IMG/VR virus record: IMGVR_UViG_2778261245_000001 | Location: 1-38,365 of that record | Length of the DNA: 38,365 bases | Direction: 5' to 3' (one strand) | From: a virus | Lineage: Duplodnaviria; Heunggongvirae; Uroviricota; Caudoviricetes | In this document: one piece after another, positions 1 to 36,673 of the stretch | Numbering within the stretch: position 1 is the stretch's first letter | How the letters are laid out: every line of letters begins with the position of its first letter | The notes under the pieces: model-generated | Database searches by the model: none | What the model saw: only the letters and a program-made list of their open reading frames with translations | What the model was told of the DNA's origin: nothing | Program-made: the position numbers and the translations under genes

Positions 1-336
1 TTACGCAGCTCGTTGCTGCGTCCGGTGCTGACTGTGTGCCGGGAAAGCGACGGCGTAATCAACAACAGCCTGTTCAGTTGCCTCATCGGTACGGTTCTTA
101 AGGTTAGGAGCGCGGCGACTACGATTAATCAGCGCATCCACACCACCTTCATCGACCAGTTCGCGGTAACGATAAAACGTATCACGCGAAACGCCCATGA
201 TTTTACAGGCTTTTGATACGTTGCTGAGTTCTTCAGCCAGATTGAGCAAACCGGTTTTGTGTTTGATAACGGGATTGGTAGTATGAAGCATGAGAGTTAC
301 CTCGTGTTTTGTATAAGGATTCGACACCCATATCAA
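1..336 (-). mobile_element. Truncated IS-type transposase N-terminal HTH fragment (111 codons, stop codon at 1-3)
   Basis: Translation has an HTH-rich N-terminus of the kind found in IS481/IS3-type transposases (GVSRDTFYRYRELVDEGGVDAL) but terminates after 111 aa with no catalytic domain; family assignment is from memory. Confidence 0.4.
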
Positions 337-402
337 AACCGGTAACTCTCAACCTTTCAAGGCTCAGTGTCAGATCAAGTCGCGACTAATACATGTAAAT
401 AT

Positions 403-1533
403 TCATATTGTTAAAGTTACCCAATTTTTTCCGCGGAGATCGTTATAACGATCAGTTTGTTGCTGGGTTTTATGTCCCAGCAATTTCTGAGTATCTATTC
501 CCTGTTCTTTGTATAGCCTTTCTGACAATGAACGTTGCTCATGAAAGGTTGCTGGGGTTCCTTCACCCCAATCAATTTCAGCCAGATCCCTTGCTTTGCT
601 AAAATTCATAGTCAGAGTATTAGCTTTTACTTGTGCCCCACGTTCTGCCTGTGAAGTTGATCTGAAAAAATGTACTAAGTATGGACTATCTACATAGTCA
701 CGGCAGCGAGCTACAACATCGCGCAGGCTCCAGTTGATTACATTCAAACGAAGAGAAAGAGGAATGGCTATTTTGCTGCCGGTTTTTTCCTGTTCGATAT
801 GCAGATGATCATCCCAGATATCGCTGAATTTCATTTTGGATATATCTCCCAAACGTTGGCCAGTAACCAGCGCTAACAGCATGGCATTTCCCATGTAACG
901 ATGAGTGGAGTCTGCGATATCAAAAATTTTTTGCCATTCTTCCAGGCTGAGGCGTTGACGGGTGATTTTCCTTCTGGGTTGCTTCGTCGCAAGAGCAGGG
1001 TTATACCCTGGTGGAACTTCGCCATAATGCTGTGCTTCCTTAAACACATCGATTAATACAGACCTTACGACTTGGGCCATTCTAGGCTGTCCAGCTGTAA
1101 TATACTCATCAAGCAATTGTGCTATATCTCTGACATCAACGGATGAGATCAACTTCATTCCTGCTCGTTCTCTGAGCAAGGATACTGGTTTGGCTTTTTG
1201 CTTATAGGTATTGAGTCTTATATCACCACTTTTGAGCCTATCATCCTGGATCGCTTGATAGCGATCTAACCAGGTTGACGTTGTGATCGCTTTTCCTTTG
1301 CAGGTTGCGATCCTGTCACTGATAGCCAGAATCTGTCGGGTTCTTTGTTCAGCCAGGCGTGTATTGGCTTCAGTGGCAATAGCGATGGCTTCAGCTTCGT
1401 TAGTTCCCAACGCATGAAATTTCCCTGTTACTGGATGCTTATACCGCCAATAGACTTTATTTACCTTCCTACTATAAAGCGGATATAAGTTAGGTACTGA
1501 AACATTATTCTTACGCGGTCTGGCTGCCATCAC
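403..1533 (-). CDS. int: Lambda-family tyrosine integrase
   Basis: 376 aa; C-terminal catalytic region ending FHEQRSLSERLY...LLGHK...YNDLRG closely parallels the lambda Int C-terminus (FHELRSLSARLY...LLGHK...YRDDRG); followed by excisionase as in lambda. Confidence 0.9.
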   Translation of the reverse strand: MMAARPRKNNVSVPNLYPLYSRKVNKVYWRYKHPVTGKFHALGTNEAEAIAIATEANTRLAEQRTRQILAISDRIATCKGKAITTSTWLDRYQAIQDDRLKSGDIRLNTYKQKAKPVSLLRERAGMKLISSVDVRDIAQLLDEYITAGQPRMAQVVRSVLIDVFKEAQHYGEVPPGYNPALATKQPRRKITRQRLSLEEWQKIFDIADSTHRYMGNAMLLALVTGQRLGDISKMKFSDIWDDHLHIEQEKTGSKIAIPLSLRLNVINWSLRDVVARCRDYVDSPYLVHFFRSTSQAERGAQVKANTLTMNFSKARDLAEIDWGEGTPATFHEQRSLSERLYKEQGIDTQKLLGHKTQQQTDRYNDLRGKNWVTLTI

Positions 1534-1756
1534 TCAAGATCCGTTGCAAAAGTAATGAGTCATTTTTCTTGATTACTGGTGTTACCAACTCCCCAACTAA
1601 CTCAGCGTCCTCACGCACTCGCCATAACCGACCTTGTTTCATGGCCGGTGGGCAAAATAAATTCTGCTTAGCATAACGACGCAATGTGGACACACTTGGA
1701 GGATTACTTCTGTATTTTTCAGAGGCCCATTCTTCAAGAGTTAACATTTGAAGCAT
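1511..1756 (-). CDS. xis: Excisionase (Xis-like DNA-binding protein)
   Basis: 81 aa ORF immediately upstream of and overlapping int start by 23 nt; small basic winged-helix-like sequence; position as lambda xis. Confidence 0.7.
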   Translation of the reverse strand: MLQMLTLEEWASEKYRSNPPSVSTLRRYAKQNLFCPPAMKQGRLWRVREDAELVGELVTPVIKKNDSLLLQRILSDGSQTA

Positions 1757-1918
1757 ATGCGATCACCTTGTTACTTCACTAACTGTTCAGTCTCTGCATA
1801 TCGACCCTGCAAGGTCGGTTAGTTTCTCCACAAAACAGAGAAGAGCACCTGTGGCCACAACTATCAGGATGGATCGGGTTATGACCCCGTCATCCGGGGA
1901 TACTCTTCTCTGTTTTGT

Positions 1919-1965
1919 AAAAAGGGCGGTACCAGCCGGAAGCAAGGGTACAAGCTGGTACCGCC
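1919..1965 (-). terminator. Rho-independent terminator for leftward transcription, upstream of xis
   Basis: Perfect 12-bp GC-rich stem GGCGGTACCAGC / GCTGGTACCGCC (1925-1936 / 1954-1965), 17-nt loop, followed on the minus strand by CTTTTT. Confidence 0.55.
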
Positions 1966-2249
1966 AAGACTACACACAGCATAAAGTTGTGGTGCCGGGT
2001 GCCTCCCGGTGCCTGGCGAAGGTTGCACACCAGGCGGGTGGGTATCCACAGAAGGTCGACTGTCAGCCTCAACCTTAACCCGCGTGCGCTGAGCCGCATT
2101 CACCACAACGCTAAGGATTCTCTCTGGTTGAAAATACTTAGCTGTTATGTGCCTGCTTTTAGCCACATCAGGCGAGGTGGACCTGGTTATTCCCCAACAA
2201 CAAGGATTCGGTTAATCTGGTTATCCCCAACAACGCAAAAGGAAAAGAA

Positions 2250-2684
2250 ATGTCCGGTAATATCTATACGCTGTACAAATCCCACTGTGAAAATGTTGGA
2301 AAGTATCGGGGCATTGAAATCAGTGGGGTAGTGTCATCAGTCGAAATAAGCAAAGTTGAATCAAGGGCAACATTACTAACTCTTCTGGACCTTGTGTTAC
2401 ATGAGCACCGGAAGAAATTCGGCACTCCCTATAATCAGTTGAATGGGAAAAAGGCTCTGGTTCACCTTATTCTGATGAAGCATCACTGGATGCCAAAACA
2501 GATTAATGAGATGAAATTTGATGAACTTCTTCTTTCAATTCAGGATGAACTCACACTTGATAAAATAAGCGTAACCGCCCAGAAATTTTTAGATTATCGA
2601 GACTGGAGATCACAAATTCATCACTTTGATGATTTTGACGAAAATGAATGGGATCCTAATTTGTCTGCACAATATCTAAAGTAA
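2250..2684 (+). CDS. Hypothetical protein, 144 aa (accessory gene between xis and cI)
   Basis: ORF with AGGA-type RBS about 8 nt upstream of ATG; preceded by two direct repeats; no family recognised. Confidence 0.55.
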   Translation: MSGNIYTLYKSHCENVGKYRGIEISGVVSSVEISKVESRATLLTLLDLVLHEHRKKFGTPYNQLNGKKALVHLILMKHHWMPKQINEMKFDELLLSIQDELTLDKISVTAQKFLDYRDWRSQIHHFDDFDENEWDPNLSAQYLK

Positions 2685-2862
2685 CATCCTGTGATAAAAC
2701 CGTGATTTCCTGATCCAGTTTTTTTAAGGAGTCTATTGTTTCCTGTCGATAAGACAGCACTTCACGAAGCTGGTTTATAGCTGCCAGCTTCTTTGTCATC
2801 CACTCATAAATTTCCTCATCTGTGTAGTCAGGCGCGACGATTTTGGGTTCTGTTTTGTGCAT
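2656..2862 (-). CDS. Hypothetical small protein, 68 aa (convergent with 2250-2684, 3-prime ends overlap)
   Basis: ATG at 2862 preceded by a strong GAGGAGG Shine-Dalgarno about 7 nt upstream; ORF track lists a TTG-extended version to 2877. Confidence 0.5.
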   Translation of the reverse strand: MHKTEPKIVAPDYTDEEIYEWMTKKLAAINQLREVLSYRQETIDSLKKLDQEITVLSQDVTLDIVQTN

Positions 2863-2921
2863 TTCACACCTCCTCAAGTTATCAGTTACTTGTTGATGGG
2901 GACCAGATTGTTAAAGAGCTA

Positions 2922-2947
2922 AGCGTCCTGTAGGGCGCTTTTTTGTT
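2922..2947 (+). terminator. Rho-independent terminator, plus strand
   Basis: Stem AGCGTCC / GGGCGCT (one G-U pair), loop TGTA, followed by TTTTTTGTTG. Confidence 0.45.
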
Positions 2948-3061
2948 GCTAACGAATCATCCTGGACTTCATATGCCCCAGGCGGCTACTTCGTGGGCGT
3001 CCTGCCTGTTTGTTGTTTTTCTTGGGTACATTATGTATCTCAAAGGTACATTGTCAAGTAT

Positions 3062-3083
3062 AAAAAAACCTGCCGAAGCAGGT
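3062..3083 (-). terminator. Rho-independent terminator immediately downstream of the CI repressor gene
   Basis: Hairpin ACCTGC-CGAA-GCAGGT (3068-3083) preceded on plus strand by A7, i.e. T7 after the hairpin on the minus strand; 14 nt after the cI stop. Confidence 0.7.
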
Positions 3084-3096
3084 TCATAAACATTGA

Positions 3097-3771
3097 TTAG
3101 GCTTTGATTTTGTATCTTCTTGGTTTTCCTGAGAAAATCACAGTACCAATTATAGAGCAATTACCGTTGATCTTAATGTAAGGCTCAGGCCAGTTTGGGT
3201 TTAACGCTTTGAGATAACGCTGTGTCCCATCTTCTATCAACCTTTTGAAGGTGGTTTCACCTGTATCGTGCATCAATGCAATAACGTCGTCACCGTGGCA
3301 GGCAGGTACTTCAGGATCGACAAAAATCATGTCTCCCGGGCGGTACTCATCAATCATTGAATCACCTATCACCCGCAAGATATAAGTCATTTCCCCACAG
3401 GGTACAGGGCAGGGATACGTTTCTGCTGTGCTCAAATCAACCTCAGAATATCCAACTTCTTTCCATGCTCCGGCCTGTACCCATGATATGACAGGGACTA
3501 ATGTGATTTGTTTATTAGTGATTGAAACATCAGGTTTTTTTGTGATGTTCGTTGTCTGGTGTTCTTGATCGAGCCATCCGACAGGCAGGTCGAAACATTT
3601 TTCGATGTGTCGTGCCATGCTGTCACCGATATTTTTAGTAGCACCATCTCCCATAAACCTGCTGGTTTGGGTTGGCTCGCGATCAATCATAGTGGCAAAG
3701 GAAGAATTCCCGCCAACACCATCTCTCAGTTTTCTGGCGTTAGACCGCCGGATGTCATGGATTGTTTTCAT
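3097..3771 (-). CDS. CI-type prophage repressor (N-terminal HTH plus C-terminal S24 LexA-like peptidase domain)
   Basis: 224 aa; C-terminal ...YILRVIGDSMIDEYRPGDMIFVDP... is the S24 autocleavage domain signature; divergent from a cro-like gene; same length as e14 CohE. Confidence 0.9.
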   Translation of the reverse strand: MKTIHDIRRSNARKLRDGVGGNSSFATMIDREPTQTSRFMGDGATKNIGDSMARHIEKCFDLPVGWLDQEHQTTNITKKPDVSITNKQITLVPVISWVQAGAWKEVGYSEVDLSTAETYPCPVPCGEMTYILRVIGDSMIDEYRPGDMIFVDPEVPACHGDDVIALMHDTGETTFKRLIEDGTQRYLKALNPNWPEPYIKINGNCSIIGTVIFSGKPRRYKIKA

Positions 3772-3786
3772 AACGAAATTAAAACC

Positions 3787-3807
3787 CTTGTACCGTTAAG
3801 GTACAAG
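3787..3807. promoter_or_regulatory. Candidate operator: 21-bp palindrome CTTGTACC-GTTAA-GGTACAAG in the cI-cro divergent intergenic region
   Basis: Perfect 8-bp inverted arms; an isolated GGTACA half-site recurs at about 3850-3855 next to the cro RBS; putative -35 TTGAAG (3812-3817) and -10 TAATAT (3834-3839) for cro lie between. Confidence 0.45.
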
Positions 3808-3861
3808 TATCTTGAAGGTTCATTTTAATCATGTAATATGTATATTGGAGGTACATATTGT

Positions 3862-4062
3862 ATGAAAGCGTATTGGGACTCTTTAACCAAAGAACAGCAG
3901 GGCGAGTTGGCCGGAAAAGTTGGCTCAACACCTGGCTACTTACGGCTGGTTTTCAATGGCTATAAAAAAGCCAGTTTTGTGCTGGCTAAAAAACTTGAGC
4001 AATGCACGTCAGGTGCAATTACGAAATCTGACTTAAGACCGGATATCTATCCGAAAGATTAG
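3862..4062 (+). CDS. Cro-like small HTH regulator
   Basis: 66 aa from ATG 3862 with GGAGG RBS at about 3847-3851; divergent from cI; ORF track lists a longer version from 3838. Confidence 0.7.
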   Translation: MKAYWDSLTKEQQGELAGKVGSTPGYLRLVFNGYKKASFVLAKKLEQCTSGAITKSDLRPDIYPKD

Positions 4063-4093
4063 CAGAACACTTTCAATTTTTAACCACAGAACG

Positions 4094-4663
4094 ATGAGGC
4101 TAATCGTGGGTAAGCATCACTGGAAAATAGAAAAACAGCCTGAGTGGTACATGAAAGCTGTCAGAAAAACTATCGCGGCGTTGCCGGGTGGTTACGCTGA
4201 AGCCGCTGACTGGCTGGATGTAACAGAGAACGCTTTATTCAACCGCCTTCGTGCAGATGGCGATCAGATTTTTCCGCTGGGATGGGCAATGGTTTTACAG
4301 CGTGCTGGTGGCACTCACTTCATTGCTGATGCTGTGGCGCAGTCTGCAAATGGCGTATTTGTGTCTCTTCCTGACGTCGAGGATGTGGACAACGCCGATA
4401 TTAACCAGCGTCTGCTGGAAGTCATTGAACAGATCGGCAGTTATTCAAAACAGATTCGTTCAGCAATCGAAGACGGTGTAGTGGAACCGCATGAGAAGAC
4501 AGCAATTAACGACGAGCTGTATCTCTCAATTTCGAAGCTGCAGGAGCATGCAGCACTGGTCTACAAAATCTTTTGCATTTCAGAAAGTAATGACGCCCGC
4601 GAGTGTGCAGCTCCGGGCGTCGTGGCGTCGATTGCTTCTGGTTGTGGAGAAACTAACGCATGA
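4094..4663 (+). CDS. YdaT/YmfL-like early regulatory protein (CII-position gene)
   Basis: 189 aa ORF directly downstream of cro; size and position match e14 ymfL and Rac ydaT; start may be the internal ATG at 4151. Confidence 0.5.
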
Positions 4664-4998
4664 ACAGTTTAACAACACACTACCGTCGCTCGCAACTGAT
4701 TGCGCTTCCTGTACCGGGTGGAAAAGCGAAGGTGGAATATTGCTATGCAGTGAATGTACCAGGTGACAGGGAAATTGTAACCCACAGCTTTGCAGAGTGG
4801 GCTGTGGGTGATTTCAACCGGCAGAAGGAGACAGTCCTTTGCGACAAGTTAACCGCTGGTTCAAAGATCACTACGGAGTGCCCGTCAGAGTTATTCGTTG
4901 GGAGCCGGAAACACAACGGGTTATCTACCTCCGTGAAGGCTATGAGCATGAGTGCTTCAGCCCGCTCGAACAGTTTCGTCGTAAATTCAGGGAAATAG
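4660..4998 (+). CDS. Hypothetical protein, 112 aa (YmfM-position gene)
   Basis: ORF overlapping previous stop (ATGA-type coupling); same length and position as e14 ymfM; no family recognised. Confidence 0.45.
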
Positions 4999-5007
4999 AG
5001 GTCGGTC

Positions 5008-5949
5008 ATGAGCACTAAATTAACCGGCTATGTATGGGATGGTTGCGCTGCGTCAGGCATGAAATTATCCAGCGTGGCAATTATGGCCCGCCTGGCTGAT
5101 TTCAGTAATGACGAAGGTGTGTGCTGGCCATCAATTGAAACCATTGCCCGTCAGATTGGCGCGGGGATGAGTACCGTCAGAACGGCTATCGCACGGCTGG
5201 AAGCAGAAGGCTGGTTAACGCGTAAGGCGCGTCGCCAGGGTAACCGCAATGCGTCGAATGTTTATCAGCTTAACGTTGCGAAGCTTCAGGCAGCGGCATT
5301 TTCTCAACTGTCAGATTCTGACCCGTCAAAATCTGACGCATCAAAATCTGACCCGTCAAAATTTGATGCGTCGAAATCTGGCAAAAAAGCGGGTTTTCAC
5401 CCGTCAGAATCTGGCGGGGATCCGTCAGTAAAATCAAAACATGATCCGTCAGATAAAAAACCTTCTCGTCCGGACGCTTCGCAACCGGACACGCAGACGG
5501 CTGAACAGGATTTTTTAACTCGCCATCCTGATGCGGTTGTATTCAGCCCTAAAAAGCGCCAGTGGGGGACGCAGGATGATTTGACCTGCGCACAGTGGCT
5601 CTGGAAAAAAATCATCGCCCTGTACGAGCAGGCTGCCGAATGTGACGGCGAGGTGGTTCGTCCCAAAGAACCGAACTGGACAGCCTGGGCAAACGAAATT
5701 CGCCTGATGTGTGTACAGGATGGGCGTACTCACAAACAAATCTGCGAGATGTACAGCCGCGTCAGCCGCGATCCGTTCTGGTGCCGTAACGTGCTCAGCC
5801 CGTCGAAGCTGCGGGAAAAATGGGATGAGCTTTCCCTGCGCTTATCGCCGTCCGTCAGCACGTACACCGAAAAACGCGAGGACCCGTACTTCAAAGCCAG
5901 TTACGACAACGTGGACTACAGCCAGATCCCGGCAGGATTCAGAGGGTGA
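5008..5949 (+). CDS. Phage replication initiator (lambda O-like: N-terminal HTH, internal iteron-encoded repeat region, C-terminal domain)
   Basis: 313 aa; N-terminal winged-helix-like segment; central low-complexity DPSKSD repeats encoded by DNA iterons; position after cro/cII-like genes. Confidence 0.7.
   Translation: MSTKLTGYVWDGCAASGMKLSSVAIMARLADFSNDEGVCWPSIETIARQIGAGMSTVRTAIARLEAEGWLTRKARRQGNRNASNVYQLNVAKLQAAAFSQLSDSDPSKSDASKSDPSKFDASKSGKKAGFHPSESGGDPSVKSKHDPSDKKPSRPDASQPDTQTAEQDFLTRHPDAVVFSPKKRQWGTQDDLTCAQWLWKKIIALYEQAAECDGEVVRPKEPNWTAWANEIRLMCVQDGRTHKQICEMYSRVSRDPFWCRNVLSPSKLREKWDELSLRLSPSVSTYTEKREDPYFKASYDNVDYSQIPAGFRG
5311..5455. repeat. Iteron array (candidate replication origin) inside the replication-initiator gene
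   Basis: At least 7 tandem copies of a 12-15 bp unit resembling CCGTCA(A/G)AATCTGA, e.g. gacccgtcaaaatctgacgcatcaaaatctgacccgtcaaaatttgatgcgtcgaaatctgg. Confidence 0.55.
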
Positions 5950-6440
5950 TCATGAGTCTGTTAAATGACGTTCAGAAATTCATTGAAGCCCATCCGGGGT
6001 GTACTTCCGGAGACATTGCGGATGCTTTTGCAGGTTACTCACGGCAGCGCGTTCTGCAGTCTGCAAGCAAGTTACGTCAGAGTGGGCGTGTGGCTCACCG
6101 TTGTGAAGGAGATACACGCAGACATTTCCCGCGCCTGACTGAGAGAGCGCAGGAACCGGAACCACAACCAGTTCGAGAAACCAGACCTGTGCGCAATTTC
6201 TATGTCGGCACTAACGATCCACGGGTGATTTTGTGCCTGACCCGCCAGGCTGAAGAACTGGAGTCCAGGGGCTTATACCGTCGTGCTGCAACCGTGTGGA
6301 TGGCGGCATTCCGTGAAAGCCACTCCCAGCCAGAACGAAACAATTTTCTGGCGCGTCGTGAGCTGTGTTTACGTAAAAGCAGCAAGCGCGCTGTATCGAG
6401 TGATGAGTGGTATCTGTCAGGGAATTACGTGGGGGCGTAA
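5946..6440 (+). CDS. Hypothetical protein with C-terminal PerC/Pch-like regulator motif
   Basis: 164 aa; C-terminal LESRGLYRRAATVW...ARRELC resembles the PerC/Pch family signature (recalled, not searched); N-terminal part looks winged-helix-like. Confidence 0.4.
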   Translation: MIMSLLNDVQKFIEAHPGCTSGDIADAFAGYSRQRVLQSASKLRQSGRVAHRCEGDTRRHFPRLTERAQEPEPQPVRETRPVRNFYVGTNDPRVILCLTRQAEELESRGLYRRAATVWMAAFRESHSQPERNNFLARRELCLRKSSKRAVSSDEWYLSGNYVGA

Positions 6441-6766
6441 TGACGACGTTAACTCAATGCCAGCAGCAGGTGCTGGATATGCTGATTTCTTATCAGAAAG
6501 AGCGTGGCTTTCCGCCAACCAATCAGGAGGTGGCAACCATGCTGGGATACCGTTCAGTGAATGCAGCGGTAGAGCATCTTCGCGCACTGGAGAAAAAAGG
6601 CGTCATCACGATAAAGCGTGGCGTGGCCCGGGGGATAACGCTTCATACCGCGGTGAAGGACGACGACAGCGAGGCGGTCGGGATTATCCGCGCACTGCTT
6701 GCCGGTGAGGAAAACGCAAGGCTGCGTGCAACCCACTGGTTACATGAGAGGGGCCTGAAAGTATGA
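6440..6766 (+). CDS. LexA N-terminal DNA-binding-domain-like protein lacking the S24 peptidase domain
   Basis: 108 aa from ATG 6440 (TAATG overlap with upstream gene); residues TLTQCQQQVLDMLISYQKERGFPPTNQEVATMLGYRSVNAAVEHLRALEKKGVITI align closely with the LexA N-terminal winged HTH; no Ser/Lys peptidase region. Confidence 0.65.
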   Translation: MTTLTQCQQQVLDMLISYQKERGFPPTNQEVATMLGYRSVNAAVEHLRALEKKGVITIKRGVARGITLHTAVKDDDSEAVGIIRALLAGEENARLRATHWLHERGLKV

Positions 6767-7152
6767 AGCTGATCCTGCCTTTTCCGCCCAGCGTGAACAC
6801 GTACTGGCGACACCCCAACAAAGGGGCGTTTGCTGGTAAGAGCCTGATAAGCGCGGCGGGGCGAAAATTCCAGAGCGCAGCGTGCGCAGCAATAGTTGAG
6901 CAGTTACGTCGTCTGCCGAAACCAACGTCGGCACCTGCTTCAGTGGAGATCGTGTTGTTTCCTCCGGATAACCGGATCCGCGATCTGGACAACTATAACA
7001 AGGCGCTGTTTGACGCCCTGACCCACGCGGGTGTGTGGGAAGACGACAGCCAAGTGAAAAGAATGTTGGTGGAGTGGGGACCGGTTATCCCGGAAGGGAA
7101 GGTCGAGATCACTATCAGTAAGTACGAGAAACCGGCGGGTGCAGCCGCCTGA
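6763..7152 (+). CDS. rusA: RusA-family Holliday junction resolvase
   Basis: 129 aa; motifs PPSVNTYWRH and RDLDNYNKALFDALTHAGVWEDDSQV match RusA ([36 protein letters not shown]). Confidence 0.85.
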   Translation: MKLILPFPPSVNTYWRHPNKGAFAGKSLISAAGRKFQSAACAAIVEQLRRLPKPTSAPASVEIVLFPPDNRIRDLDNYNKALFDALTHAGVWEDDSQVKRMLVEWGPVIPEGKVEITISKYEKPAGAAA

Positions 7153-7171
7153 TTAAGAGGAGAAACGAAGT

Positions 7172-7969
7172 ATGAATAATCTGATGGTCATTGATGGTAT
7201 TGAAGTTCGTCGTGATGCTTATGGGCGTTACAGCCTGAACGATCTGCACAGGGCTGCCGGTTCTCTGGATAAGCATAAGCCTGCATTCTGGCTCCGCAAT
7301 GAGCAAACTGAACGTTTAATAAGCGAGTTGCAGATTTGCAACTCGGTCAATATAGAGCCAGTTAACGTTATTCGTGGCGGAAATAACCAGGGGACGTATG
7401 TCTGCAAAGAACTGGTGTATGCCTATGCAATGTGGATCAGCCCGTCATTCCATCTGAAGGTGATCCGTACTTTCGATATGGTAACCAGCGCACCGGAAAA
7501 ATTATCCGGACAGGCTGCTGACAAGATGCAGGCTGGTGTGATTCTGCTGGACTTTATGCGCCGGGAATTAAACCTGTCTAACTCTTCAGTGCTTGGTGCC
7601 TGTCAGAAACTCCAGGAGGCTGTTGGCTTACCGAATCTGGCACCGCGCTATGCCATTGATGCTCCTGCTGATGCACTCGATGGCTCAAGCCGCCCTACGC
7701 TATCATTGAGTGCACTGCTGAAGCAGTATGGTATCCGCCTTACGGCTAATCAGGCATATCACCAGATGGTGAAGCTGGGGATCGTCGAACAGCGCGAACG
7801 ATACAGCCGTACCGCGATTAACAACATCAAAAAATTCTGGTCGCTGACAGCGAAAGGCTGCATGTTCGGCAAGAACATCACCAGTCCCGCAAATCCGCGC
7901 GAGACGCAGCCGCACTTTTTCGAATCCCGATTCCCTGAGCTGTTAAAGCTGCTCGATACCGTTCATTGA
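7172..7969 (+). CDS. KilA-N/Bro-N-type DNA-binding domain protein (putative antirepressor-like)
   Basis: 265 aa; N-terminal region has the character of a KilA-N/Bro-N domain, recognised from memory only; common early-region phage gene. Confidence 0.45.
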   Translation: MNNLMVIDGIEVRRDAYGRYSLNDLHRAAGSLDKHKPAFWLRNEQTERLISELQICNSVNIEPVNVIRGGNNQGTYVCKELVYAYAMWISPSFHLKVIRTFDMVTSAPEKLSGQAADKMQAGVILLDFMRRELNLSNSSVLGACQKLQEAVGLPNLAPRYAIDAPADALDGSSRPTLSLSALLKQYGIRLTANQAYHQMVKLGIVEQRERYSRTAINNIKKFWSLTAKGCMFGKNITSPANPRETQPHFFESRFPELLKLLDTVH

Positions 7970-7976
7970 GGTTACC

Positions 7977-8965: not shown

Positions 8966-8979
8966 TTTGGTGGAGAAAG

Positions 8980-9330: not shown

Positions 9331-9337
9331 TTTATTA

Positions 9338-9356
9338 GACGGCCATATTGGCCGTC
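9338..9356. terminator. Bidirectional hairpin terminator between Q and the convergent cassette
   Basis: Perfect hairpin GACGGCCA-TAT-TGGCCGTC with AT-rich flanks on both sides; overlaps the stop codon of the 9355-10542 gene. Confidence 0.55.
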
Positions 9357-27586: not shown

Positions 27587-27696
27587 GTTATCACCTTAAT
27601 GCTAATAATTTATATAGTTACAAATGGTAATGGCTACCACTACAAATTATGGCATTACCAGTAAATATTACTACTGATAATAAATATGGGACTTAT

Positions 27697-29025: not shown

Positions 29026-30101
29026 ACGACAATGTCACGCTACGGGTAAATGGCCGGGAGTGGAATGGCTGGACATCGGTGCGCATCGGTGCCGGTATTG
29101 AACGGCTGGCGCGGGATTTCAGTGTGGAGATCACTCGCCAGTGGCCGGGAGATGAGGGTATCACCACGCTTCAGCCGCGCATTAAAAACGGTTCAAAAGT
29201 GGAAGTGCTGATTGGTGATGAGCTGGTGATCACCGGCTGGGTGGAGGCGACTCCCGTTCGTTACGATGCCCGTTCGGTCAGCACCGGTATTGCCGGACGT
29301 AGTCTGACGGCTGACCTGATTGACTGTGCAGCCGAACCGACACAGTTTAACGGACGCTCGCTGGTGCAGATTGCGCAGGCGCTTGCTGCGCCTTTCGGCA
29401 TTGAGGTGGTGAACAGCGGTGCGCCATCGGGTGTTATTCCTGATGTTCAGCCTGATCACGGTGAAACGGTGATTGAGGTAATCAACAAAATACTCGGTCA
29501 GCAGCAGGCGCTGGCTTACGACGACCCGCACGGCAGGCTGGTGATTGGCGGTATTGGCTCAACGCGGGCACATACCGTGCTGGTACTTGGGGAAAACATC
29601 CTTTCCTGTGATACGGAGAAGAGTATCCGGGAGCGGTTTTCTGTTTACCAGGTGGCGGGGCAGCGTGCCGGAAACGACGATGATTTCGGTGAGGCCACCA
29701 CCACCGCGCTGCGGGCCCGCACAGAGGACGCATTTATTGCCCGTTACCGTCCGATGTATATCAGGCAGACAGGGCAGGCCACGGGGGCAGGTTGTATTGC
29801 GCGTGCTGACTTTGAAGCCCGACAACGGGCGGCGCGGACGGATGAAACCACCTATGTGGTGCAGGGCTGGCGACAGGGTAACGGTACGCTGTGGCAGCCC
29901 AACCAGCGGGTGATTGTCTTCGATCCGGTCTGTGGTTTCGACAATACCGAACTGCTTGTCTCGGAAGTCACGTTTACTCAGTACCAGAACGGCACCCTGA
30001 CGGAAATCCGTGTCGGCCCACCTGATGCTTATCTGCCTGAACCCGAAGCCCCCGGCGCGCGGAAAAAGAAAAAAGCCAGAGTACAGGAGGACCCGTTCTG
30101 A
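29022..30101 (+). CDS. Mu gpP-like baseplate hub protein
   Basis: 359 aa, position in Mu-type order. Confidence 0.75.
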   Translation: MNDNVTLRVNGREWNGWTSVRIGAGIERLARDFSVEITRQWPGDEGITTLQPRIKNGSKVEVLIGDELVITGWVEATPVRYDARSVSTGIAGRSLTADLIDCAAEPTQFNGRSLVQIAQALAAPFGIEVVNSGAPSGVIPDVQPDHGETVIEVINKILGQQQALAYDDPHGRLVIGGIGSTRAHTVLVLGENILSCDTEKSIRERFSVYQVAGQRAGNDDDFGEATTTALRARTEDAFIARYRPMYIRQTGQATGAGCIARADFEARQRAARTDETTYVVQGWRQGNGTLWQPNQRVIVFDPVCGFDNTELLVSEVTFTQYQNGTLTEIRVGPPDAYLPEPEAPGARKKKKARVQEDPF

Positions 30102-30649
30102 TGAGGACGATTGAAGCCATGCAGCGACAACTCCTCGGCCTGATTGGGCGGGCCGTGGTGAAAAGCATCAGTGCCGCCACGAAATGTCAGACCGTGGATG
30201 TGTCCCTGATTGCCGGTGAACCCAAAGCCGGGGTTGAACATCTTGAACCCTACGGTTTTACCGCAAGGGCAAACAGCGGTGCGGAAGCGGTGGTGTTGTT
30301 TCCGGATGGAGACCGTTCTCATGCGGTGGTTGTTACGGTGTCGGACCGTCGCTACCGCCTGAAAGGGCTGCAGACTGGGGAGGTGGCTGTCTATGACGAT
30401 CAGGGGCAGTCCGTGACGCTGACCCGGGAGGGGATCGTGGTGGACGGTGCAGGTAAAACGATCACGTTTCGCAATGCGCCTAAGGCACGTTTTGAAATGG
30501 ACCTGGAAGTGACAGGACAGGTGAAAGACCTGTGCGACTCCAGCGGCACCACCATGTCAGCGATGCGGCTTGCCTATAACGGGCATCGTCACAGAGAGAA
30601 CGGTCAGGGCAGTAACACCGACAAACCTGATAAAGCGATGGAGGCATGA
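30101..30649 (+). CDS. Baseplate spike/assembly protein (Mu gp45-like, V-type)
   Basis: 182 aa, position in Mu-type order. Confidence 0.65.
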   Translation: MRTIEAMQRQLLGLIGRAVVKSISAATKCQTVDVSLIAGEPKAGVEHLEPYGFTARANSGAEAVVLFPDGDRSHAVVVTVSDRRYRLKGLQTGEVAVYDDQGQSVTLTREGIVVDGAGKTITFRNAPKARFEMDLEVTGQVKDLCDSSGTTMSAMRLAYNGHRHRENGQGSNTDKPDKAMEA

Positions 30650-31074
30650 TGGAACTGTGGCTGACGGTGAACGGTAAACGCACCTGCGCCAGCGCACCGC
30701 TGGATCCGCTGACCCGCGCCGTGGTGATTTCCCTGTTTACCTGGCGGCGGGCGGAGCCTGATGACAACGCCGGCGTCCCGATGGGATGGTGGGGGGATAC
30801 CTGGCCTGCGGTACAGAATGACCGTTACGGCTCCCGACTGTGGCTGCTTCAGCGCAGCAAACTGACCAATCAGCTGGTGCAGACGGTAAGGGGGTATATC
30901 CGCGAATGCCTGCAATGGATGATTGATGATGGCGTGGTGTCCCGTATTGATCTGGATATCCGCCGCACCGGGATTAATGAACTGGGTAACAGTATCACTC
31001 TCTGGCGTCGTGACGGACCGGTAATGATTTCTTTTGATGATCTGTGGAGTGCGATAACGCATGGCGGACAGTGA
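30646..31074 (+). CDS. Mu gp46-like baseplate protein
   Basis: 142 aa, position in Mu-type order. Confidence 0.65.
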   Translation: MMELWLTVNGKRTCASAPLDPLTRAVVISLFTWRRAEPDDNAGVPMGWWGDTWPAVQNDRYGSRLWLLQRSKLTNQLVQTVRGYIRECLQWMIDDGVVSRIDLDIRRTGINELGNSITLWRRDGPVMISFDDLWSAITHGGQ

Positions 31075-32119
31075 ATTTCAGCGCCCGACGCTGGCAGAAA
31101 ATATCAGTATGCTCCGTAACGATTTATTCGCCTGGCTGGACGTCAGCGACACGCTCCGGCGCATGGATGAAGACGTGCGGGCAAAGGTGTATGCGGCGGC
31201 GCTGCATACGGTTTACGGGTACATCGATTATCTGGCAATGAACATGCTGCCTGACTTGTGCGATGAGTCCTGGCTGGCGCGACATGCTGCGATGAAACGA
31301 TGTCCGCGCAAGGGGGCCACGGCTGCCAGCGGGTATATGCGCTGGGAAGGTGTCAGCGATGGCCTGAAGGTGACCGCCGGGAGTGTTATTCAGCGCGATG
31401 ACCTGGTGCAGTACACGGCAACTGCCGATGCAACCAGCTCCGGTGGTGTCCTGCGCGTGCCGATCGCCTGCTCAAGTGCAGGCGCGGTCGGTAACGCTGA
31501 CGACGGTACGTCATTAATCCTGGTCACGCCGGTGAATGGTCTGCCGTCTTCCGGCGTGGCAGATACACTGACAGGTGGATTTGATACTGAAGAGCTGGAA
31601 ACGTGGCGCGCCCGCGTCATTGAGCGGTATTACTGGACGCCTCAGGGCGGGGCTGACGGGGACTATGTCGTCTGGGCTAAAGAAGTTCCCGGCATTACCC
31701 GCGCATGGACATACCGACACTGGATGGGAACGGGGACTGTCGGTGTGATGATTGCCAGCAGCGACCTGATTAATCCCATTCCGGAAGAATCAACGGAAAC
31801 GGCGGCAAGGCTGCATATCGAGCCACTGGCCCCGGTGGCAGGCTCTGATTTGTATGTGTTCAGGCCGGTGGCACATACGGTGGATTTTCATATCCGTGTG
31901 ACGCCGGACACACCGGAAATACGGGCTGCCATCACCGCGGAGTTGCGTTCGTTCCTGCTGCGTGATGGTTATCCGCAGGGGGAACTGAAGGTATCGCGTA
32001 TCAGTGAGGCGATTTCCGGAGCGAACGGGGAATACAGCCATCAGTTGCTTGCACCGGCAGACAATATCTCCATTGCAAAAAATGAACTGGCGGTACTGGG
32101 GACGATTTCATGGACGTGA
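31061..32119 (+). CDS. Baseplate J-like protein (Mu gp47-like)
   Basis: 352 aa, position in Mu-type order. Confidence 0.75.
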
Positions 32120-32694
32120 CAAACGATGATTACATCCGTCTGTTGTCGGCACTGTTGCCCCCCGGTCCGGCGTGGTCAGCCAGCGATCCGGCGATTGCCG
32201 GTGCGGCACCGTCATTAACCCGCGTTCATCAGCGTGCGGATGCCCTGATGCGGGAGCTGGATCCGCGCACCACCACTGAACTGATAAACCGCTGGGAGCG
32301 TCTGTGCGGTCTGCCGGATGAATGTATTCCCGCAGGGACACAGACCCTTCGCCAGCGTCAGCAACGGCTGGATGCGAAGGTTAACCTGGCGGGCGGCATC
32401 AACGAGAATTTTTATCTTGCACAGCTTGCTGCCCTGGGCAGACCAGACGCTACCATCACGCGATACGACAAAAGCACGTTCACCTGCTCATCGGCCTGTA
32501 CTGACGCGGTGAATGCGCCGGAATGGCGGTATTACTGGCAGGTCAACATGCCAGCCGCCACAAACACCACCTGGATGACATGTGGCGATCCCTGTGATTC
32601 CGCGCTGCGTATCTGGGGCGACACCGTTGTCGAATGTGTGCTTAACAAACTCTGCCCGTCGCATACCTACGTAATTTTTAAATATCCGGAGTAA
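32110..32694 (+). CDS. Mu gp48-like tail protein (DUF2313, e14 YmfQ-like)
   Basis: 194 aa directly upstream of tail fibre gene, as ymfQ in e14. Confidence 0.7.
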
Positions 32695-32697
32695 TCC

Positions 32698-33468
32698 ATG
32701 CATCGTATAGACACGAAAACCGCGCAGAAGGATAAGTTCGGCGCGGGTAAGAACGGTTTTACCCGTGGTAACCCCCAGACTGGCACACCTGCCACCGATC
32801 TCGATGATGACTACTTTGATATGTTGCAGGAGGAGCTTTGCAGCGTGGTGGAGGCATCCGGTGCCAGCCTGGAGAAGGGGCGAAACGACCAGTTGCTTAC
32901 CGCGCTTCGTGCTCTGCTGTTAAGCCGCAAGAATCCGTTTGGTGATATCAAATCGGATGGCACGGTGAAAACGGCTCTCGAAAACCTTGGTTTGGGAGAA
33001 GGCTCTGCATTACCTGTTGGTGTGCCTGTTCCATGGCCTTCAGCCACACCGCCAACAGGCTGGCTGAAATGCAACGGTGCGGCATTTTCTGCTGAAGAAT
33101 ACCCGGAACTGGCAAAGGCTTATCCAACAAATAAATTACCTGATTTACGCGGTGAGTTTATTCGTGGCTGGGATGACGGGCGCGGTATTGATGCAGGACG
33201 TGTTTTATTGAGCATTCAGACAGGGATGCTGGAAAAACACCGCCATATTGTTGTTGCAAATGATGGTTACGACACAAAAGATGAATGGGAACTGGCTACG
33301 ATTTTCAAAAAGACATACACACAAGGACGGGGACTTGATGCCACAAATACAGGAGGGAGTCTGATCCCATCACCGACACTTCATTCACGAGGGAGTATCG
33401 GTAATACTGGCGGGAATGAAACCCGTCCACGAAATATTGCATTTAATTTTATCGTGAGGGCTGCATAA
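32698..33468 (+). CDS. Tail fibre protein: constant N-terminal part fused to the currently expressed variable C-terminal part
   Basis: 256 aa; recombination crossover site lies inside the gene at about codons 93-101 (ALENLGLGE); glycine-rich C-terminal region. Confidence 0.75.
32975..33000. other. Left crossover site of the invertible segment (Hin/Gin/Pin-type 26-bp site)
   Basis: CTCTCGAAAACCTTGGTTTGGGAGAA, imperfect palindrome resembling hix/gix sites; its right half is repeated inverted at 34865-34879. Confidence 0.6.
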
Positions 33469-34070
33469 TGGATAACGCCGTATTAAATAGCGAGCTTATT
33501 GCCACGAAGGCGGGGAATATTACCGTCTATAACTATGATGGTAAAACTCGGGAATATATTTCCACTTCAAATGAATATCTTGCCATTGGTGTCGGTATCC
33601 CTGCATATTCCTGTTTAGATGCCCCTGGCACACATAAGGCGGGTTATGCTATCTGCCGTTCGATGGATTTAAACTCATGGGAATATGTGCCAGATCATCG
33701 CGGTGAAATTGTCTATAGCACCGAAACAGGAGAATCGAAAGAAATCACAGCTCCGGGTGATTATCCTGAAAATACAACCACTATCGCCCCGTTAACGCCA
33801 TACGATGAATGGAATGGTGAGAAATGGGTGACAGATACCGAGGCACAGCACGGCGCAGCAGTAGATGCAGCAGAAGCACAGCGCCAGTCGCTGATTGATA
33901 CTGCAATGGCCTCCATCAGTCTGATTCAACTGAAATTACAGGCCGGACGGAAGCTGACGCAGGCAGAAACAACCCGCCTTAACGCTGTGCTGGATTACAT
34001 TGACGCGGTGACGGCAACAGATACCAGCACAGCGCCGGATGTCATCTGGCCTGAATTGCCGGAGGCGTAG
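33468..34070 (+). CDS. Tail fibre assembly protein (chaperone) for the expressed fibre variant
   Basis: 200 aa; immediately follows fibre gene; C-terminal region similar to that of the opposite-strand paralog (TSTAPDVIWPELP vs TSGAPDIEWPTPP). Confidence 0.7.
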   Translation: MDNAVLNSELIATKAGNITVYNYDGKTREYISTSNEYLAIGVGIPAYSCLDAPGTHKAGYAICRSMDLNSWEYVPDHRGEIVYSTETGESKEITAPGDYPENTTTIAPLTPYDEWNGEKWVTDTEAQHGAAVDAAEAQRQSLIDTAMASISLIQLKLQAGRKLTQAETTRLNAVLDYIDAVTATDTSTAPDVIWPELPEA

Positions 34071-34494
34071 GCCATTCAATATCTGGCGCACCGGAAGTAT
34101 CGATCAGCTCCAGTGCGTCCAGATAATCCAGCCACAAATTATATTGCGCCAGTTCCTCACCTTTCAGACGACCAATAGCGGCTTTACCAGGCCATTGCTT
34201 ACCGTTCATGTATTCGTTAGCCTGGTTAATTAGTAGCTGTCTTTCTGATTCAGTAATTTCAATAAGCTCTTCATGAGTAGGTGGAGGAATATCTGCCCAC
34301 GCAGGTAGTCCATCCTCTCCGGCAATACGGACTTTTCCTTGTGGCGGTTCAGCCATAAACTCACTGACAATATTTTGATTCACCTCCTTAGCATCTGATA
34401 AATCCCATCCTACTGATTTATATTTATCAATCATATCCACAGGGAAAAAAGCATTATGCCTGGCACTATAAACATATTCGTTCATATAAATCAC
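34042..34494 (-). CDS. Alternative tail fibre assembly protein (opposite orientation)
   Basis: 150 aa; paralogous C-terminus to 33468-34070; convergent arrangement typical of invertible fibre cassettes. Confidence 0.7.
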   Translation of the reverse strand: MIYMNEYVYSARHNAFFPVDMIDKYKSVGWDLSDAKEVNQNIVSEFMAEPPQGKVRIAGEDGLPAWADIPPPTHEELIEITESERQLLINQANEYMNGKQWPGKAAIGRLKGEELAQYNLWLDYLDALELIDTSGAPDIEWPTPPAIQAR

Positions 34495-34505
34495 CCTGAA
34501 TAAAA

Positions 34506-34878
34506 TTACTCACCAACAGCCCACCAACTGTAATGCATAGATACCGTGTCACTGGTTGATGACGTTCTGTAAGCAGAATTAAAGCCGGTTAACGTAGGGC
34601 CTTCTGCAGTCATCACGAACCCTCGCCCAGCGCCTAAAGGCGCACCGCCATCACCAGAATGGGTAAGAATGGCGCAGTCCGCTTTTTTAGGGAAAGGGAT
34701 AGGAAATGTAATCCTCATTGTTTGCGTCGATAATTTCGGCATAGCCTCGCCTCGACCATATTGCAGAATTTTACCGTTGGGTAATTTCATCCATCCATCA
34801 CCACTGGCAAAAGAGGCCATGTCCGGTATCTGATTTTCCCCTGTCCCTACATCCCGTTTTGCCGCTTCTCCCAAACCA
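34506..34878 (-). CDS. Alternative variable tail-fibre C-terminal segment (promoterless; expressed only after inversion)
   Basis: Minus-strand ORF whose 5-prime end coincides with the right crossover site (encodes INVGLGE matching the ENLGLGE junction of the expressed fibre); the ORF-track N-terminal extension to 34919 lies outside the segment and is probably not real. Confidence 0.55.
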
Positions 34879-34891
34879 ACGTTTATGAAAA
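34866..34891. other. Right crossover site of the invertible segment
   Basis: Reverse complement reads ...CATAAACGTTGGTTTGGGAGAA, sharing the 15-nt block TTGGTTTGGGAGAAG with the left site in inverted orientation. Confidence 0.6.
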
Positions 34892-34945
34892 TGCAGAAAT
34901 AACGAGCAAATGGCATCATTCCTGCTTTTGTCAGGGGGATCTACC

Positions 34946-35500
34946 ATGCTTATTGGCTATGTACGCGTATCAACAAATGACCAGAACACAGATCTACAAC
35001 GTAATGCGCTGAACTGTGCAGGATGCGAGCTGATTTTTGAAGACAAGATAAGCGGTACAAAGTCCGAAAGGCCGGGACTGAAAAAACTGCTCAGGACATT
35101 ATCGGCAGGTGACACGCTGGTGGTCTGGAAACTGGACCGGCTGGGGCGCAGTATGCGGCATCTTGTCGTGCTGGTGGAGGAGTTGCGCGAACGAGGCATC
35201 AACTTTCGTAGTCTGACGGATTCAATTGATACCAGTACCCCAATGGGGCGCTTTTTCTTTCATGTGATGGGTGCCCTGGCTGAAATGGAGCGTGAACTGA
35301 TTGTTGAAAGAACAAAAGCTGGACTGGAAGCTGCTCGCGCACAGGGACGAATTGGTGGACGTCGTCCCAAACTTACACCAGAACAATGGGAACAGGCCGG
35401 ACGATTAATTGCATCAGGAGTTCCTCGCCAGAAGGTGGCGATTATCTATGATGTTGGTGTGTCAACTTTGTATAAGAGGTTTCCTGCAGGGGATAAATAA
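34946..35500 (+). CDS. pin: Serine DNA invertase (Hin/Gin/Pin family)
   Basis: 184 aa from ATG 34946 with AGGGGGA RBS; MLIGYVRVSTNDQNTDLQRNAL...DTLVVWKLDRLGRSMRHL...GRRPKLT is the resolvase/invertase catalytic and HTH signature; matches PinE as recalled. Confidence 0.9.
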   Translation: MLIGYVRVSTNDQNTDLQRNALNCAGCELIFEDKISGTKSERPGLKKLLRTLSAGDTLVVWKLDRLGRSMRHLVVLVEELRERGINFRSLTDSIDTSTPMGRFFFHVMGALAEMERELIVERTKAGLEAARAQGRIGGRRPKLTPEQWEQAGRLIASGVPRQKVAIIYDVGVSTLYKRFPAGDK

Positions 35501-35606
35501 AGTTAAAGACACTTTTTGTACAAAAGAGAATAAAACAACAGCAACTTGTTGCAATTTTATCAATAAAAGTAGTATTGTCGTGAAAAATTGATTAAAGATT
35601 AATATT

Positions 35607-36440
35607 ATGCATGTTTTTGATAATAATGGAATTGAACTGAAAGCTGAGTGTTCGATAGGTGAAGAGGATGGTGTTTATGGTCTAATCCTTGAGTCGTGGG
35701 GGCCGGGTGACAGAAACAAAGATTACAATATCGCTCTTGATTATATCATTGAACGGTTGGTTGATTCTGGTGTATCCCAAGTCGTAGTATATCTGGCGTC
35801 ATCATCAGTCAGAAAACATATGCATTCTTTGGATGAAAGAAAAATCCATCCTGGTGAATATTTTACTTTGATTGGTAATAGCCCCCGCGATATACGCTTG
35901 AAGATGTGTGGTTATCAGGCTTATTTTAGTCGTACGGGGAGAAAGGAAATTCCTTCCGGCAATAGAACGAAACGAATATTGATAAATGTCCCAGGTATTT
36001 ATAGTGACAGTTTTTGGGCGTCTATAATACGTGGAGAACTATCAGAGCTTTCACAGCCTACAGATGATGAATCGCTTCTGAATATGAGGGTTAGTAAATT
36101 AATTAAGAAAACGTTGAGTCAACCCGAGGGCTCCAGGAAACCAGTTGAGGTAGAAAGACTACAAAAAGTTTATGTCCGAGACCCGATGGTAAAAGCTTGG
36201 ATTTTACAGCAAAGTAAAGGTATATGTGAAAACTGTGGTAAAAATGCTCCGTTTTATTTAAATGATGGAAACCCATATTTGGAAGTGCATCATGTAATTC
36301 CCCTGTCTTCAGGTGGTGCTGATACAACAGATAACTGTGTTGCCCTTTGTCCGAATTGCCATAGAGAATTGCACTATAGTAAAAATGCAAAAGAACTAAT
36401 CGAGATGCTTTACGTTAATATAAACCGATTACAGAAATAA
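35607..36440 (+). CDS. mcrA: McrA-like HNH endonuclease (modified-cytosine restriction)
   Basis: 277 aa, AT-rich; C-terminal CENCGKNAPFYLNDGNPYLEVHHVIPLSSGGADTTDNCVALCPNCH HNH motif; same length and position (after pin, before icd fragment) as mcrA of e14; N-terminus MHVFDNNGIEL as recalled for McrA. Confidence 0.8.
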   Translation: MHVFDNNGIELKAECSIGEEDGVYGLILESWGPGDRNKDYNIALDYIIERLVDSGVSQVVVYLASSSVRKHMHSLDERKIHPGEYFTLIGNSPRDIRLKMCGYQAYFSRTGRKEIPSGNRTKRILINVPGIYSDSFWASIIRGELSELSQPTDDESLLNMRVSKLIKKTLSQPEGSRKPVEVERLQKVYVRDPMVKAWILQQSKGICENCGKNAPFYLNDGNPYLEVHHVIPLSSGGADTTDNCVALCPNCHRELHYSKNAKELIEMLYVNINRLQK

Positions 36441-36673
36441 AATTATTTATTAAAGTCACATTTAAGACGTAATACCCTACAGGGTAAAAATTTTCTCTGA
36501 TCTTAACTTCTGCAAATGTTAACTGCTATTTTTATGCTAAAAATGGTTATCAAAACTCAAAAACACATGTTTATAATCAATGAGTTATAGAAATGCTAAG
36601 GGCTAATGAGTTATATGCAAATTAGTAAAATTATGTTGCTATGTCAAATAGTTACGATTTAGTCATCTAACTA

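Follow-up and report, generated by a model that had tools for sequence, protein, structure and literature searches.

Gene content of the prophage

The DNA analysed here, all 38,365 nucleotides of IMG/VR virus record IMGVR_UViG_2778261245_000001 (the window), carries a prophage related to the element e14 of Escherichia coli K-12. Positions 395-36673 very probably make up one essentially complete temperate phage genome integrated at the 3' end of icd, with approximately 2 kb of the left end of the prophage falling outside the window, as judged from other strains. The predicted modules give lambda-style regulation and a Mu-style contractile tail, together with an HK97-style head that uses cos packaging (HNH, P27-type terS, terL). 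Matches in a phage collection were to SfV, SfI, SfII, SfIV, SKA5 and vB_EcoM-689R6, and on sequence grounds the prophage is assigned to the SfV/SfI/SfII/SfIV group of lambdoid myoviruses. Where SfV has a thrW integrase and gtr cassette, the window has e14 versions of exchangeable modules: IntE/XisE with the icd attachment site, CohE/CroE immunity, a Pin-invertible fibre segment and mcrA. By the same comparisons, K-12 e14 would be a sister phage reduced by two internal losses, each of ~12 kb, and the window prophage a mosaic cousin of the parent of e14 rather than that parent, because its head is SfV-type and the ymfR and beeE remnants in e14 belong to another head type.

Every module of the prophage is supported by Pfam families, and the listing of open reading frames (ORFs) holds one integrase, one cos and one copy per module (Table 1). 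Genes run on the same strand from ~3.8 kb to 34 kb, judging from the ORF listing and base composition, and patches of low G+C content lie at 9.0-11.6 kb, 13-15 kb, 27.1-27.7 kb and beyond 36 kb. Scanning the window for tRNA and tmRNA genes found none, and no Rfam family reached its gathering score. A preliminary description of this DNA, made from the letters alone, had given the order int-xis, CI/Cro, ymfL/ymfM, O-like gene, Q, lysis, head, tail, ymfQ-like gene, fibre switch, pin, mcrA and icd fragment, and this order is real. It had also placed Q, an HK97-type head and a Mu-type contractile tail in the interval lost from e14, as the Pfam matches and K-12 alignment confirm, and had taken the prophage for a relative of e14. 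A full-length e14 relative using the same icd site is supported by its e14 integrase and excisionase, CohE-identical repressor, Pin and mcrA.

Parts of the window are widespread among 5,426 complete E. coli genomes surveyed by megablast. Coverage of at least 80% of window 20001-38365 was found in 17 of these genomes, and the same coverage of window 1-20000 in one place in none of the 5,426. The nearest overall relative is in strain 2c3 (NZ_CM176618.1), which is 97% identical over most of the window and has an annotated 39-kb prophage between icd and the icd fragment/iraM/ycgX. These gene contents and relationships are direct results of the searches and alignments.

Table 1. Features of the window, in order of position. 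aa, amino acids or amino-acid identity; nt, nucleotide identity; E, expect value.
Feature	Position	Strand	Evidence or remark
IS481-family right end	1-394	-	PF13551 HTH_29 E 5.7e-22; other IS481 copies match window 1-393/394 only
intE	403-1533	-	93.6% aa to K-12 IntE, full length; PF09003 and PF00589
e14 block: intE, xisE, ymfH	439-2180		88.8% nt to e14
xisE	1511-1756	-	97.5% aa to K-12 XisE, full length
ymfH-like, frameshifted	1787-2106	-	aligns to ymfH in two pieces
ECs1072-family gene	2250-2684	+	
73-aa ORF	2656-2877	-	
e14 block: cohE, croE, ymfL, ymfM, oweE	2948-5241		98.6% nt to e14
cohE/ymfK repressor	3097-3771	-	100% aa to K-12 CohE; SfV cI 99.6%
croE/ymfT	3862-4062	+	98.5% aa to K-12 CroE; SfV cro 100%
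early-right operon	4106-9330	+	ymfL, ymfM, O-like, yfdN/PerC-like, LexA-family orf42, RusA, KilA-N, DUF968/YdfU, Q
ymfL	4106-4663	+	98.9% aa to K-12
ymfM (division inhibitor)	4660-4998	+	96.4% aa to K-12
O-like HTH replication gene	5008-5949	+	HTH_36
DUF968/YdfU, broken	7977-8965	+	1-bp deletion near 8614
Q antiterminator	8980-9330	+	PF06530 E 1.2e-44
395-aa protein with C-terminal membrane segments	9355-10542	-	hydrophobic windows at residues 291-369
YejK/NA37-family nucleoid-associated protein	10523-11557	-	PF04245 E 8.3e-69; YejK structure 9be2 E 1.7e-19
holin	11848-12174	+	24% aa to lambda S (E 8e-07); SfV S 95.5%
endolysin	12178-12654	+	94.9% aa to lambda R; SfV R 91.8%
Rz	12651-13088	+	57% aa to lambda Rz
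Rz1, embedded	~12850-13035	+	lipobox LGVSAC (translation)
small accessory genes	13076-14943	+	ORFs of 61, 82 and 64 aa; DUF2560 region; DUF2513 (E 2.3e-13)
HNH endonuclease	15078-15428	+	
predicted cos	15486/15487		SfV record ends abut here; flanks identical
terS, P27-family	15545-16048	+	98.2% aa to SfV; PF05119
terL	16045-17778	+	97.9% aa to SfV
e14 block: aaaE	16642-17717		97.6% nt to e14
53-aa membrane ORF	17775-17936	+	between terL and portal
portal	17926-19152	+	98.8% aa to SfV
S78 protease	19145-19747	+	100% aa to SfV
capsid	19758-20987	+	99.5% aa to SfV
adaptor	21066-21389	+	100% aa to SfV
head closure	21386-21796	+	82.7% aa to SfV
neck	21741-22292	+	61.7% aa to SfV
tail terminator	22289-22849	+	
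Mu gp38-like DUF2635	within 22858-27107	+	
sheath	23012-24508	+	sheath Pfam family
tube	24508-24864	+	tube Pfam family
tail assembly protein	24864-25133	+	
tape measure	25275-27107	+	
OB-fold protein, Sie-like, 148 aa	27140-27586	-	PF12869 E 2.9e-19; phrog_8545 'superinfection exclusion Sie-like' E 1.5e-49
DNA-circularization (Mu N)	within 27649-32694	+	PF07157
gp44/P	29022-30101	+	GpP domains
gp45	30101-30649	+	PF06890
gp46	30646-31074	+	PF07409
gp47/J	31061-32119	+	PF04865; 97.3% aa to K-12 JayE
e14 block: jayE, ymfQ, stfP N-terminus	31332-33002		96.3% nt to e14
gp48/YmfQ	32110-32694	+	PF10076; 97.9% aa to K-12 YmfQ
fibre	32698-33468	+	constant N-terminal part to ~33001; Collar-domain tip
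crossover sites	32982-33001 and 34865-34884		20-nt inverted repeat, 1863 nt between arms
tfa	33468-34070	+	Caudo_TAP
tfa', alternative	34042-34494	-	Caudo_TAP
alternative fibre C-terminus	34506-34919	-	Gp53-like_C
e14 block: pinE, mcrA, icdC, iraM to ycgX	34865-38365		97.1% nt to e14
pinE	34946-35500	+	97.8% aa to K-12 PinE; Resolvase and HTH_7
mcrA	35607-36440	+	100% aa to K-12 McrA; PADLOC mREase_IV E 6.5e-203
attR	36441-36838	+	233-bp non-coding phage arm, then displaced icd 3' fragment icdC 36674-36838

Packaging, head, tail and lysis genes

The morphogenesis genes largely follow those of SfV. Window 15487-27110 corresponds to SfV 1-11612 (96.1% nucleotide identity) and window 27693-33001 to SfV 11666-16974 (97.6%), and the proteins from TerS to gp48 are full length and 97.9-100% identical to SfV, except for the head closure and neck proteins. 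Those two genes lie in a patch of SfIV type (21386-22300, 98.8% nucleotide identity). The two ends of the SfV record meet within the window with identical flanks, so that cos is predicted to fall after the HNH gene and before terS. Packaging-module proteins match PF05119, PF03354 and PF20441, and the HK97-type portal, protease and capsid match PF04860, PF04586 and PF05065. Contractile-tail proteins encoded at 22858-27107 are 98-100% identical to SfV orf10-14, and the baseplate genes (27649-32694), in Mu order, encode proteins 98.7-99.5% identical to SfV orf15-20.

The portal ORF opens 48 nucleotides after the annotated SfV start. A lesion at this point was considered and rejected, as there is no stop codon; the SfV GTG is GCG in the window, and an in-frame GTG downstream is available. 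Just ahead of the portal, the 53-residue hydrophobic ORF occupies the position of ymfR in e14 with no sequence relation to K-12 YmfR. SfV has kept this ORF as well; its annotation omits the ORF and gives a portal start that overlaps it.

The lysis cassette resembles that of lambda in gene order and in its embedded Rz1, but is not identical to it in sequence. The preliminary description had called it identical to lambda, a claim that fails (Table 1); lambda DNA aligns only over 12196-12899 (726 bp, 86% nucleotide identity). Scanning between Q and the holin for promoters and terminators gave nothing above shuffled expectation, and a terminator-like hairpin at 11674-11695 is only a candidate tR'. 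Proteins of the small accessory genes at 13076-14943 are 97.9-100% identical to those of 2c3. Comparison with the annotated 2c3 gene shows an in-frame stop ahead of the DUF2560 ORF. This stop may precede the true start, since the interrupted 2c3 annotation opens with a non-canonical codon.

Ends of the prophage

Aligning attL and attR (the left and right attachment junctions) of K-12 and of strain USMARC-51408 (NZ_CP104114.1) with the window places the right phage/host boundary at about 36673/36674, close to the 36670 proposed in the preliminary description. The displaced fragment beyond it encodes a protein 96.3% identical to K-12 IcdC, and the host genes iraM to ycgX follow.

On the left, the prophage abuts an IS481-family element, and the earlier view that an insertion-sequence fragment lies left of int, with the left attachment junction outside the window, was correct. 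The element stops 9 bp from the int stop codon (junction 394/395), and the part of its transposase in the window is the N-terminal helix-turn-helix part, ending at a frameshift-derived stop. An exact 60-mer spanning the IS481/int junction had no hit among species-representative genomes. Four complete E. coli genomes have the same IS/int junction by megablast at 99.9-100% identity. In these genomes, of which USMARC-51408 is one, icd stands 2.2 kb further left; the order in USMARC-51408 is icd, a hypothetical gene, a frameshifted IS481 transposase and intE. From this arrangement, IS481 appears to occupy a variable cargo slot between the unseen attL and int, which holds ymfD-ymfE-lit in K-12, a HAD hydrolase and DprA in 2c3, and a DUF262 gene in vB_EcoM-689R6. 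If the unseen left end resembles that of USMARC-51408, the prophage would measure ~38.6 kb, inside the 37-41.5 kb range of SfV, SfI, SfIV and SfII.

The USMARC-51408 copy of the prophage (8053-17137 in its own locus coordinates) is 99.9% identical to the window and matches window 1-4050 and 32982-38365. It has lost window 4051-34543, from cro to inside the flipped invertible segment. This decay is independent of the two K-12 deletions and happened with the Pin segment in the other orientation.

Integration, immunity and early genes

IntE is an e14-type tyrosine integrase with a lambda-type arm-binding domain. Beyond xisE, the early-left accessory region (1787-2877) has PHROG matches to phrog_5286 and phrog_1744 and stands in place of ymfI/ymfJ of e14; blastn found no K-12 match for window 2181-2947. 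The ymfH-like gene in this region has a 99.9%-identical copy in USMARC-51408 that the PGAP annotation also calls frameshifted. The cohE counterpart in that strain is annotated as a LexA-family protein.

Within the early-right operon, an ORF of the DUF4222 family (4839-5018, TTG start) overlaps ymfM in a different frame. Annotations divide between the two: K-12 has ymfM, and 2c3 has the DUF4222 gene and no ymfM. Further along, DNA alignment shows a missing A near 8614 (ctgccAccagc to ctgccccagc), which splits the DUF968/YdfU gene just upstream of Q.

Fibre switch and cargo genes

The Pin segment has its first crossover arm within the fibre gene. Its crossover sites are identical to those of K-12, and here a tip of the stfE type is joined to the constant part of the fibre. 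Both K-12 and the USMARC-51408 copy, which is 99.9% identical, have the segment in the opposite orientation, and these orientations are consistent with active flipping in the lineage. The gene for McrA, a type IV methylcytosine-dependent restriction endonuclease, is the final prophage gene before attR.

Two further sets of genes are cargo, and the cargo genes are the only parts of the prophage with some fresh interest. An operon at 9355-11557 lies on the opposite strand between Q and the holin, has 35-37% G+C and consists of two genes that overlap by 20 bp; it has a match to phrog_5023, and the gene pair is also found in the 2c3 prophage. No relative of known structure was found for the 395-residue membrane protein. 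The second cargo gene encodes the OB-fold protein, which is predicted to be membrane-anchored by an N-terminal hydrophobic segment. It sits in an insert of ~585 bp (27108-27692) between the tape-measure and DNA-circularization genes, which occurs in the same place in 75 of the 5,426 genomes but in neither SfV nor 2c3. Immediately past the 3' end of the gene there is a GC-rich hairpin. Among the cargo genes PADLOC matched only mcrA; it also gave a weak KilA-N hit.

A possible life cycle

The prophage is plausibly inducible, because each of its structural genes is matched, nearly identically and over the full length, by a gene of SfV or SfIV, both isolated phages. A bolder reading, at somewhat less than even chances, is that it is a living, inducible phage with the exact immunity and the attachment specificity of e14 that carries a three-part anti-phage cargo: a pair resembling type II PANGU at the moron site between Q and the holin, the Sie-like OB-fold gene in the tail operon, and McrA. 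We infer inducibility and each functional step as follows. A LexA-like CohE repressor would keep the prophage silent until SOS-triggered self-cleavage of CohE switched on the early genes, those for Cro, YmfL, the division inhibitor YmfM and O-like replication. Q would antiterminate the late transcript, which would read through its terminator to provide lysis, cos packaging, head and tail functions. Pin would flip the 1.86-kb segment, swapping the fibre tip and its chaperone and so changing host range, and Int and Xis would act at the icd site. In a lysogen, the cargo genes on the opposite strand or at the end of the prophage would protect the host from other phages; their products are the YejK-like protein and its membrane partner, the OB-fold protein of Sie-like type, and McrA. 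If the prophage is such a living phage, K-12 carrying e14 would be immune to the phage, and K-12 cured of e14 would be both a host and an integration target.

Several points weigh against a living phage. The 1-bp deletion in DUF968/YdfU may have a polar effect on Q or may reflect a sequencing error, and the ymfH-like gene is also frameshifted; the word 'intact' in the preliminary description thus holds for the full gene set and not for these two genes. An IS481 element ending 9 bp after int could alter processing of the int mRNA, and attL lies beyond the window. The exact mosaic occurs in none of the complete genomes of the collection, so viability cannot be borrowed from an identical isolate, and excision and particle production are predictions from the sequence.

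The same lesions underlie a rather unlikely alternative, namely that the gene set is complete and the prophage defective, with small lesions, perhaps regulatory mutations among them, blocking excision or late expression in an early stage of decay of the e14 type. Both frameshifts and the position of the IS481 end beside int speak for such a block, as does the decay of the lineage elsewhere, seen in the large loss from the USMARC-51408 copy. Against it, the lesions are in genes with no known essential role, as inferred from the position of DUF968 in a nin-like region, and the genes for regulators, replication, lysis, packaging, head, tail and recombinases are full length, with products 94-100% identical to counterparts in isolated phages or e14. 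Furthermore, e14, whose Int, Xis and repressor are the same, reportedly remains able to excise upon SOS induction, as Brody et al. are said to have found in 1985.

Relation to e14 and its deletions

The window was compared by blastn with NC_000913.3 1195000-1213200, from which K-12 locus coordinates are counted. The shared blocks range from 88.8 to 98.6% nucleotide identity (Table 1), so the low identity to e14 that might have undone the proposed relationship was not found, and two pieces of the fibre segment align in inverted orientation. Within the 15.2 kb of e14, oweE is the N-terminus of the O-like gene and aaaE the C-terminal part of terL, both common to the window. Missing from e14 are ~24 kb kept in the window, at 5242-16641 and ~18330-31331. 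In the other direction, ymfI/ymfJ, the stfP tip and tfaP of e14 are replaced in the window, and the C0293 small RNA region of e14 is not in the window.

As the preliminary description had anticipated, the endpoints of the e14 deletions can be mapped from this DNA. The first deletion is window 5242-16641 (11.4 kb), with a junction overlap of 3 nucleotides, and the second starts at ~18330 and ends at window 31332. Overlaps of 3-4 nucleotides mark the junctions in K-12, at locus 9402-9404 (oweE|aaaE) and 11136-11139 (beeE|jayE). On 2c3, which has the K-12 head type, the deletions correspond to 2c3 locus 10561-22611 and 24350-37007, and K-12 locus 9402-11139 corresponds to 2c3 locus 22612-24349 at 97.5% identity.

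These alignments make it very improbable that the window is the direct undeleted ancestral form of K-12 e14, as might be supposed from the immunity, ymfL/ymfM, terL C-terminal, J/ymfQ, pin, mcrA and attR blocks at 96-98.6% nucleotide identity and from the clean mapping of both right-hand deletion endpoints. K-12 locus 10478-11135, holding ymfR and the beeE portal fragment, has no nucleotide match in the window and matches 2c3 at 97.5%, and BeeE is only 30% identical to the window portal in amino acids. To this difference in head type are added the low identity of int/xis (88.8%), the replacement of ymfI/ymfJ, the stfP C-terminus and tfaP, and left cargo of IS481 versus ymfD-ymfE-lit. Least probable of all is a composite of an e14 remnant and an inserted or recombined SfV-like phage: e14-like blocks do stand at both ends with SfV-like DNA in the middle, and no single genome matches at least 80% of the left half, but there is a single integrase, repressor/cro pair, cos and late-module set with no internal att-like duplication or second boundary, SfV shares cI/cro and tail with e14, so that the blocks are modules of one phage family, and the same layout recurs in 2c3 and vB_EcoM-689R6.

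The two K-12 deletion junctions occur in 283 and 284 of the 5,426 genomes (~5%), and the rows sampled were mostly laboratory derivatives of K-12. Taken apart, the two halves of each junction query turn up in some 1,300-1,900 additional genomes; uninterrupted versions are the common state of these modules. The poultry isolate BS-01 has the first junction at 98.3% identity, which hints that the K-12 deletions predate the K-12 laboratory lineage.

For a mosaic cousin of the e14 parent, the value of the window lies in a clean coordinate map of what K-12 e14 lost, and in the sign that the immunity and integration modules of e14 still circulate on complete phages of the SfV type. It provides background for work on e14 (SOS-induced excision, YmfM, McrA, Pin) and a possible natural phage for tests of e14 immunity. 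Cargo sites, for which the preliminary description had thought this DNA useful, are indeed visible in it, although they were already visible in the records of S88, 2c3 and vB_EcoM-689R6.

Comparison with known phages and systems

SfV has the same architecture as the window, with ~17 kb of morphogenesis genes at 96-97.6% nucleotide identity. It differs in its gtrABV cassette and thrW integration; at that position the window holds a Pin switch that offers two fibre tips, followed by mcrA and the icd junction. A tblastn search with SfV int and xis found nothing in the window, and the gtr-int-xis region of SfV (17858-22135) does not align to any window DNA. The Q protein of SfV is of another type (250 residues, versus 116 in the window), its replication protein is only 31% identical to that of the window, and it lacks the cargo at 9355-11557 and 27140-27586.

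Full-length relatives of e14 have been described before, contrary to the novelty implied in the preliminary description. The full-length 'e14' of E. coli S88 (orf1-22) was compared with SfI and SfV by Sun et al. 2013 (PMC3636060), who found two head types separating SfV from e14/SfI, and a 2019 review gives the icd integration of e14 and its presence in 19% of genomes. A 43-kb record deposited as phage vB_EcoM-689R6 (ON470584.1) repeats this layout down to pin, mcrA and icd, and the RefSeq prophage of 2c3 is complete. The last two share with the window the order icd, cargo, intE, xisE, early genes, Q, lysis, HNH/terminase, head, Mu-like tail, ymfQ, fibre switch, pinE, mcrA and icd'. They differ in XRE repressor immunity, yfdP/Q/R early-left genes, a Dam methylase and a K-12-type head, and they lack the OB-fold insert. 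The kind is already known from these three full-length forms, and the window is one more mosaic member; no concept is changed, as the family, its mosaicism and its full-length members were already described.

The cargo pair at 9355-11557 has the two-gene architecture of type II PANGU abortive-infection systems, in which a YejK-like nucleoid-associated protein is encoded in an operon with an effector that has a C-terminal transmembrane domain (preprint 10.64898/2026.04.06.716658). The likeness is judged from the description of these Pag2A/Pag2B systems. The PANGU effector is described with an acidic, DNA-mimic N-terminal domain. The first 280 residues of the 395-residue partner have an isoelectric point of 6.0, with 35 acidic and 31 basic residues, and so are not markedly acidic.

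The fibre switch shares its design with Gin/G of Mu, Cin/C of P1 and Pin/P of e14, in each of which a serine invertase adjoins a segment bounded by short inverted crossover sites. In this Din family, flipping the segment exchanges the C-terminal part of the fibre along with the chaperone that assembles it, and the first site lies inside the fibre gene, as in the window. At the level tested there is no difference from these switches, and the alternative tip in the window is gp53-like where K-12 has the StfP tip.

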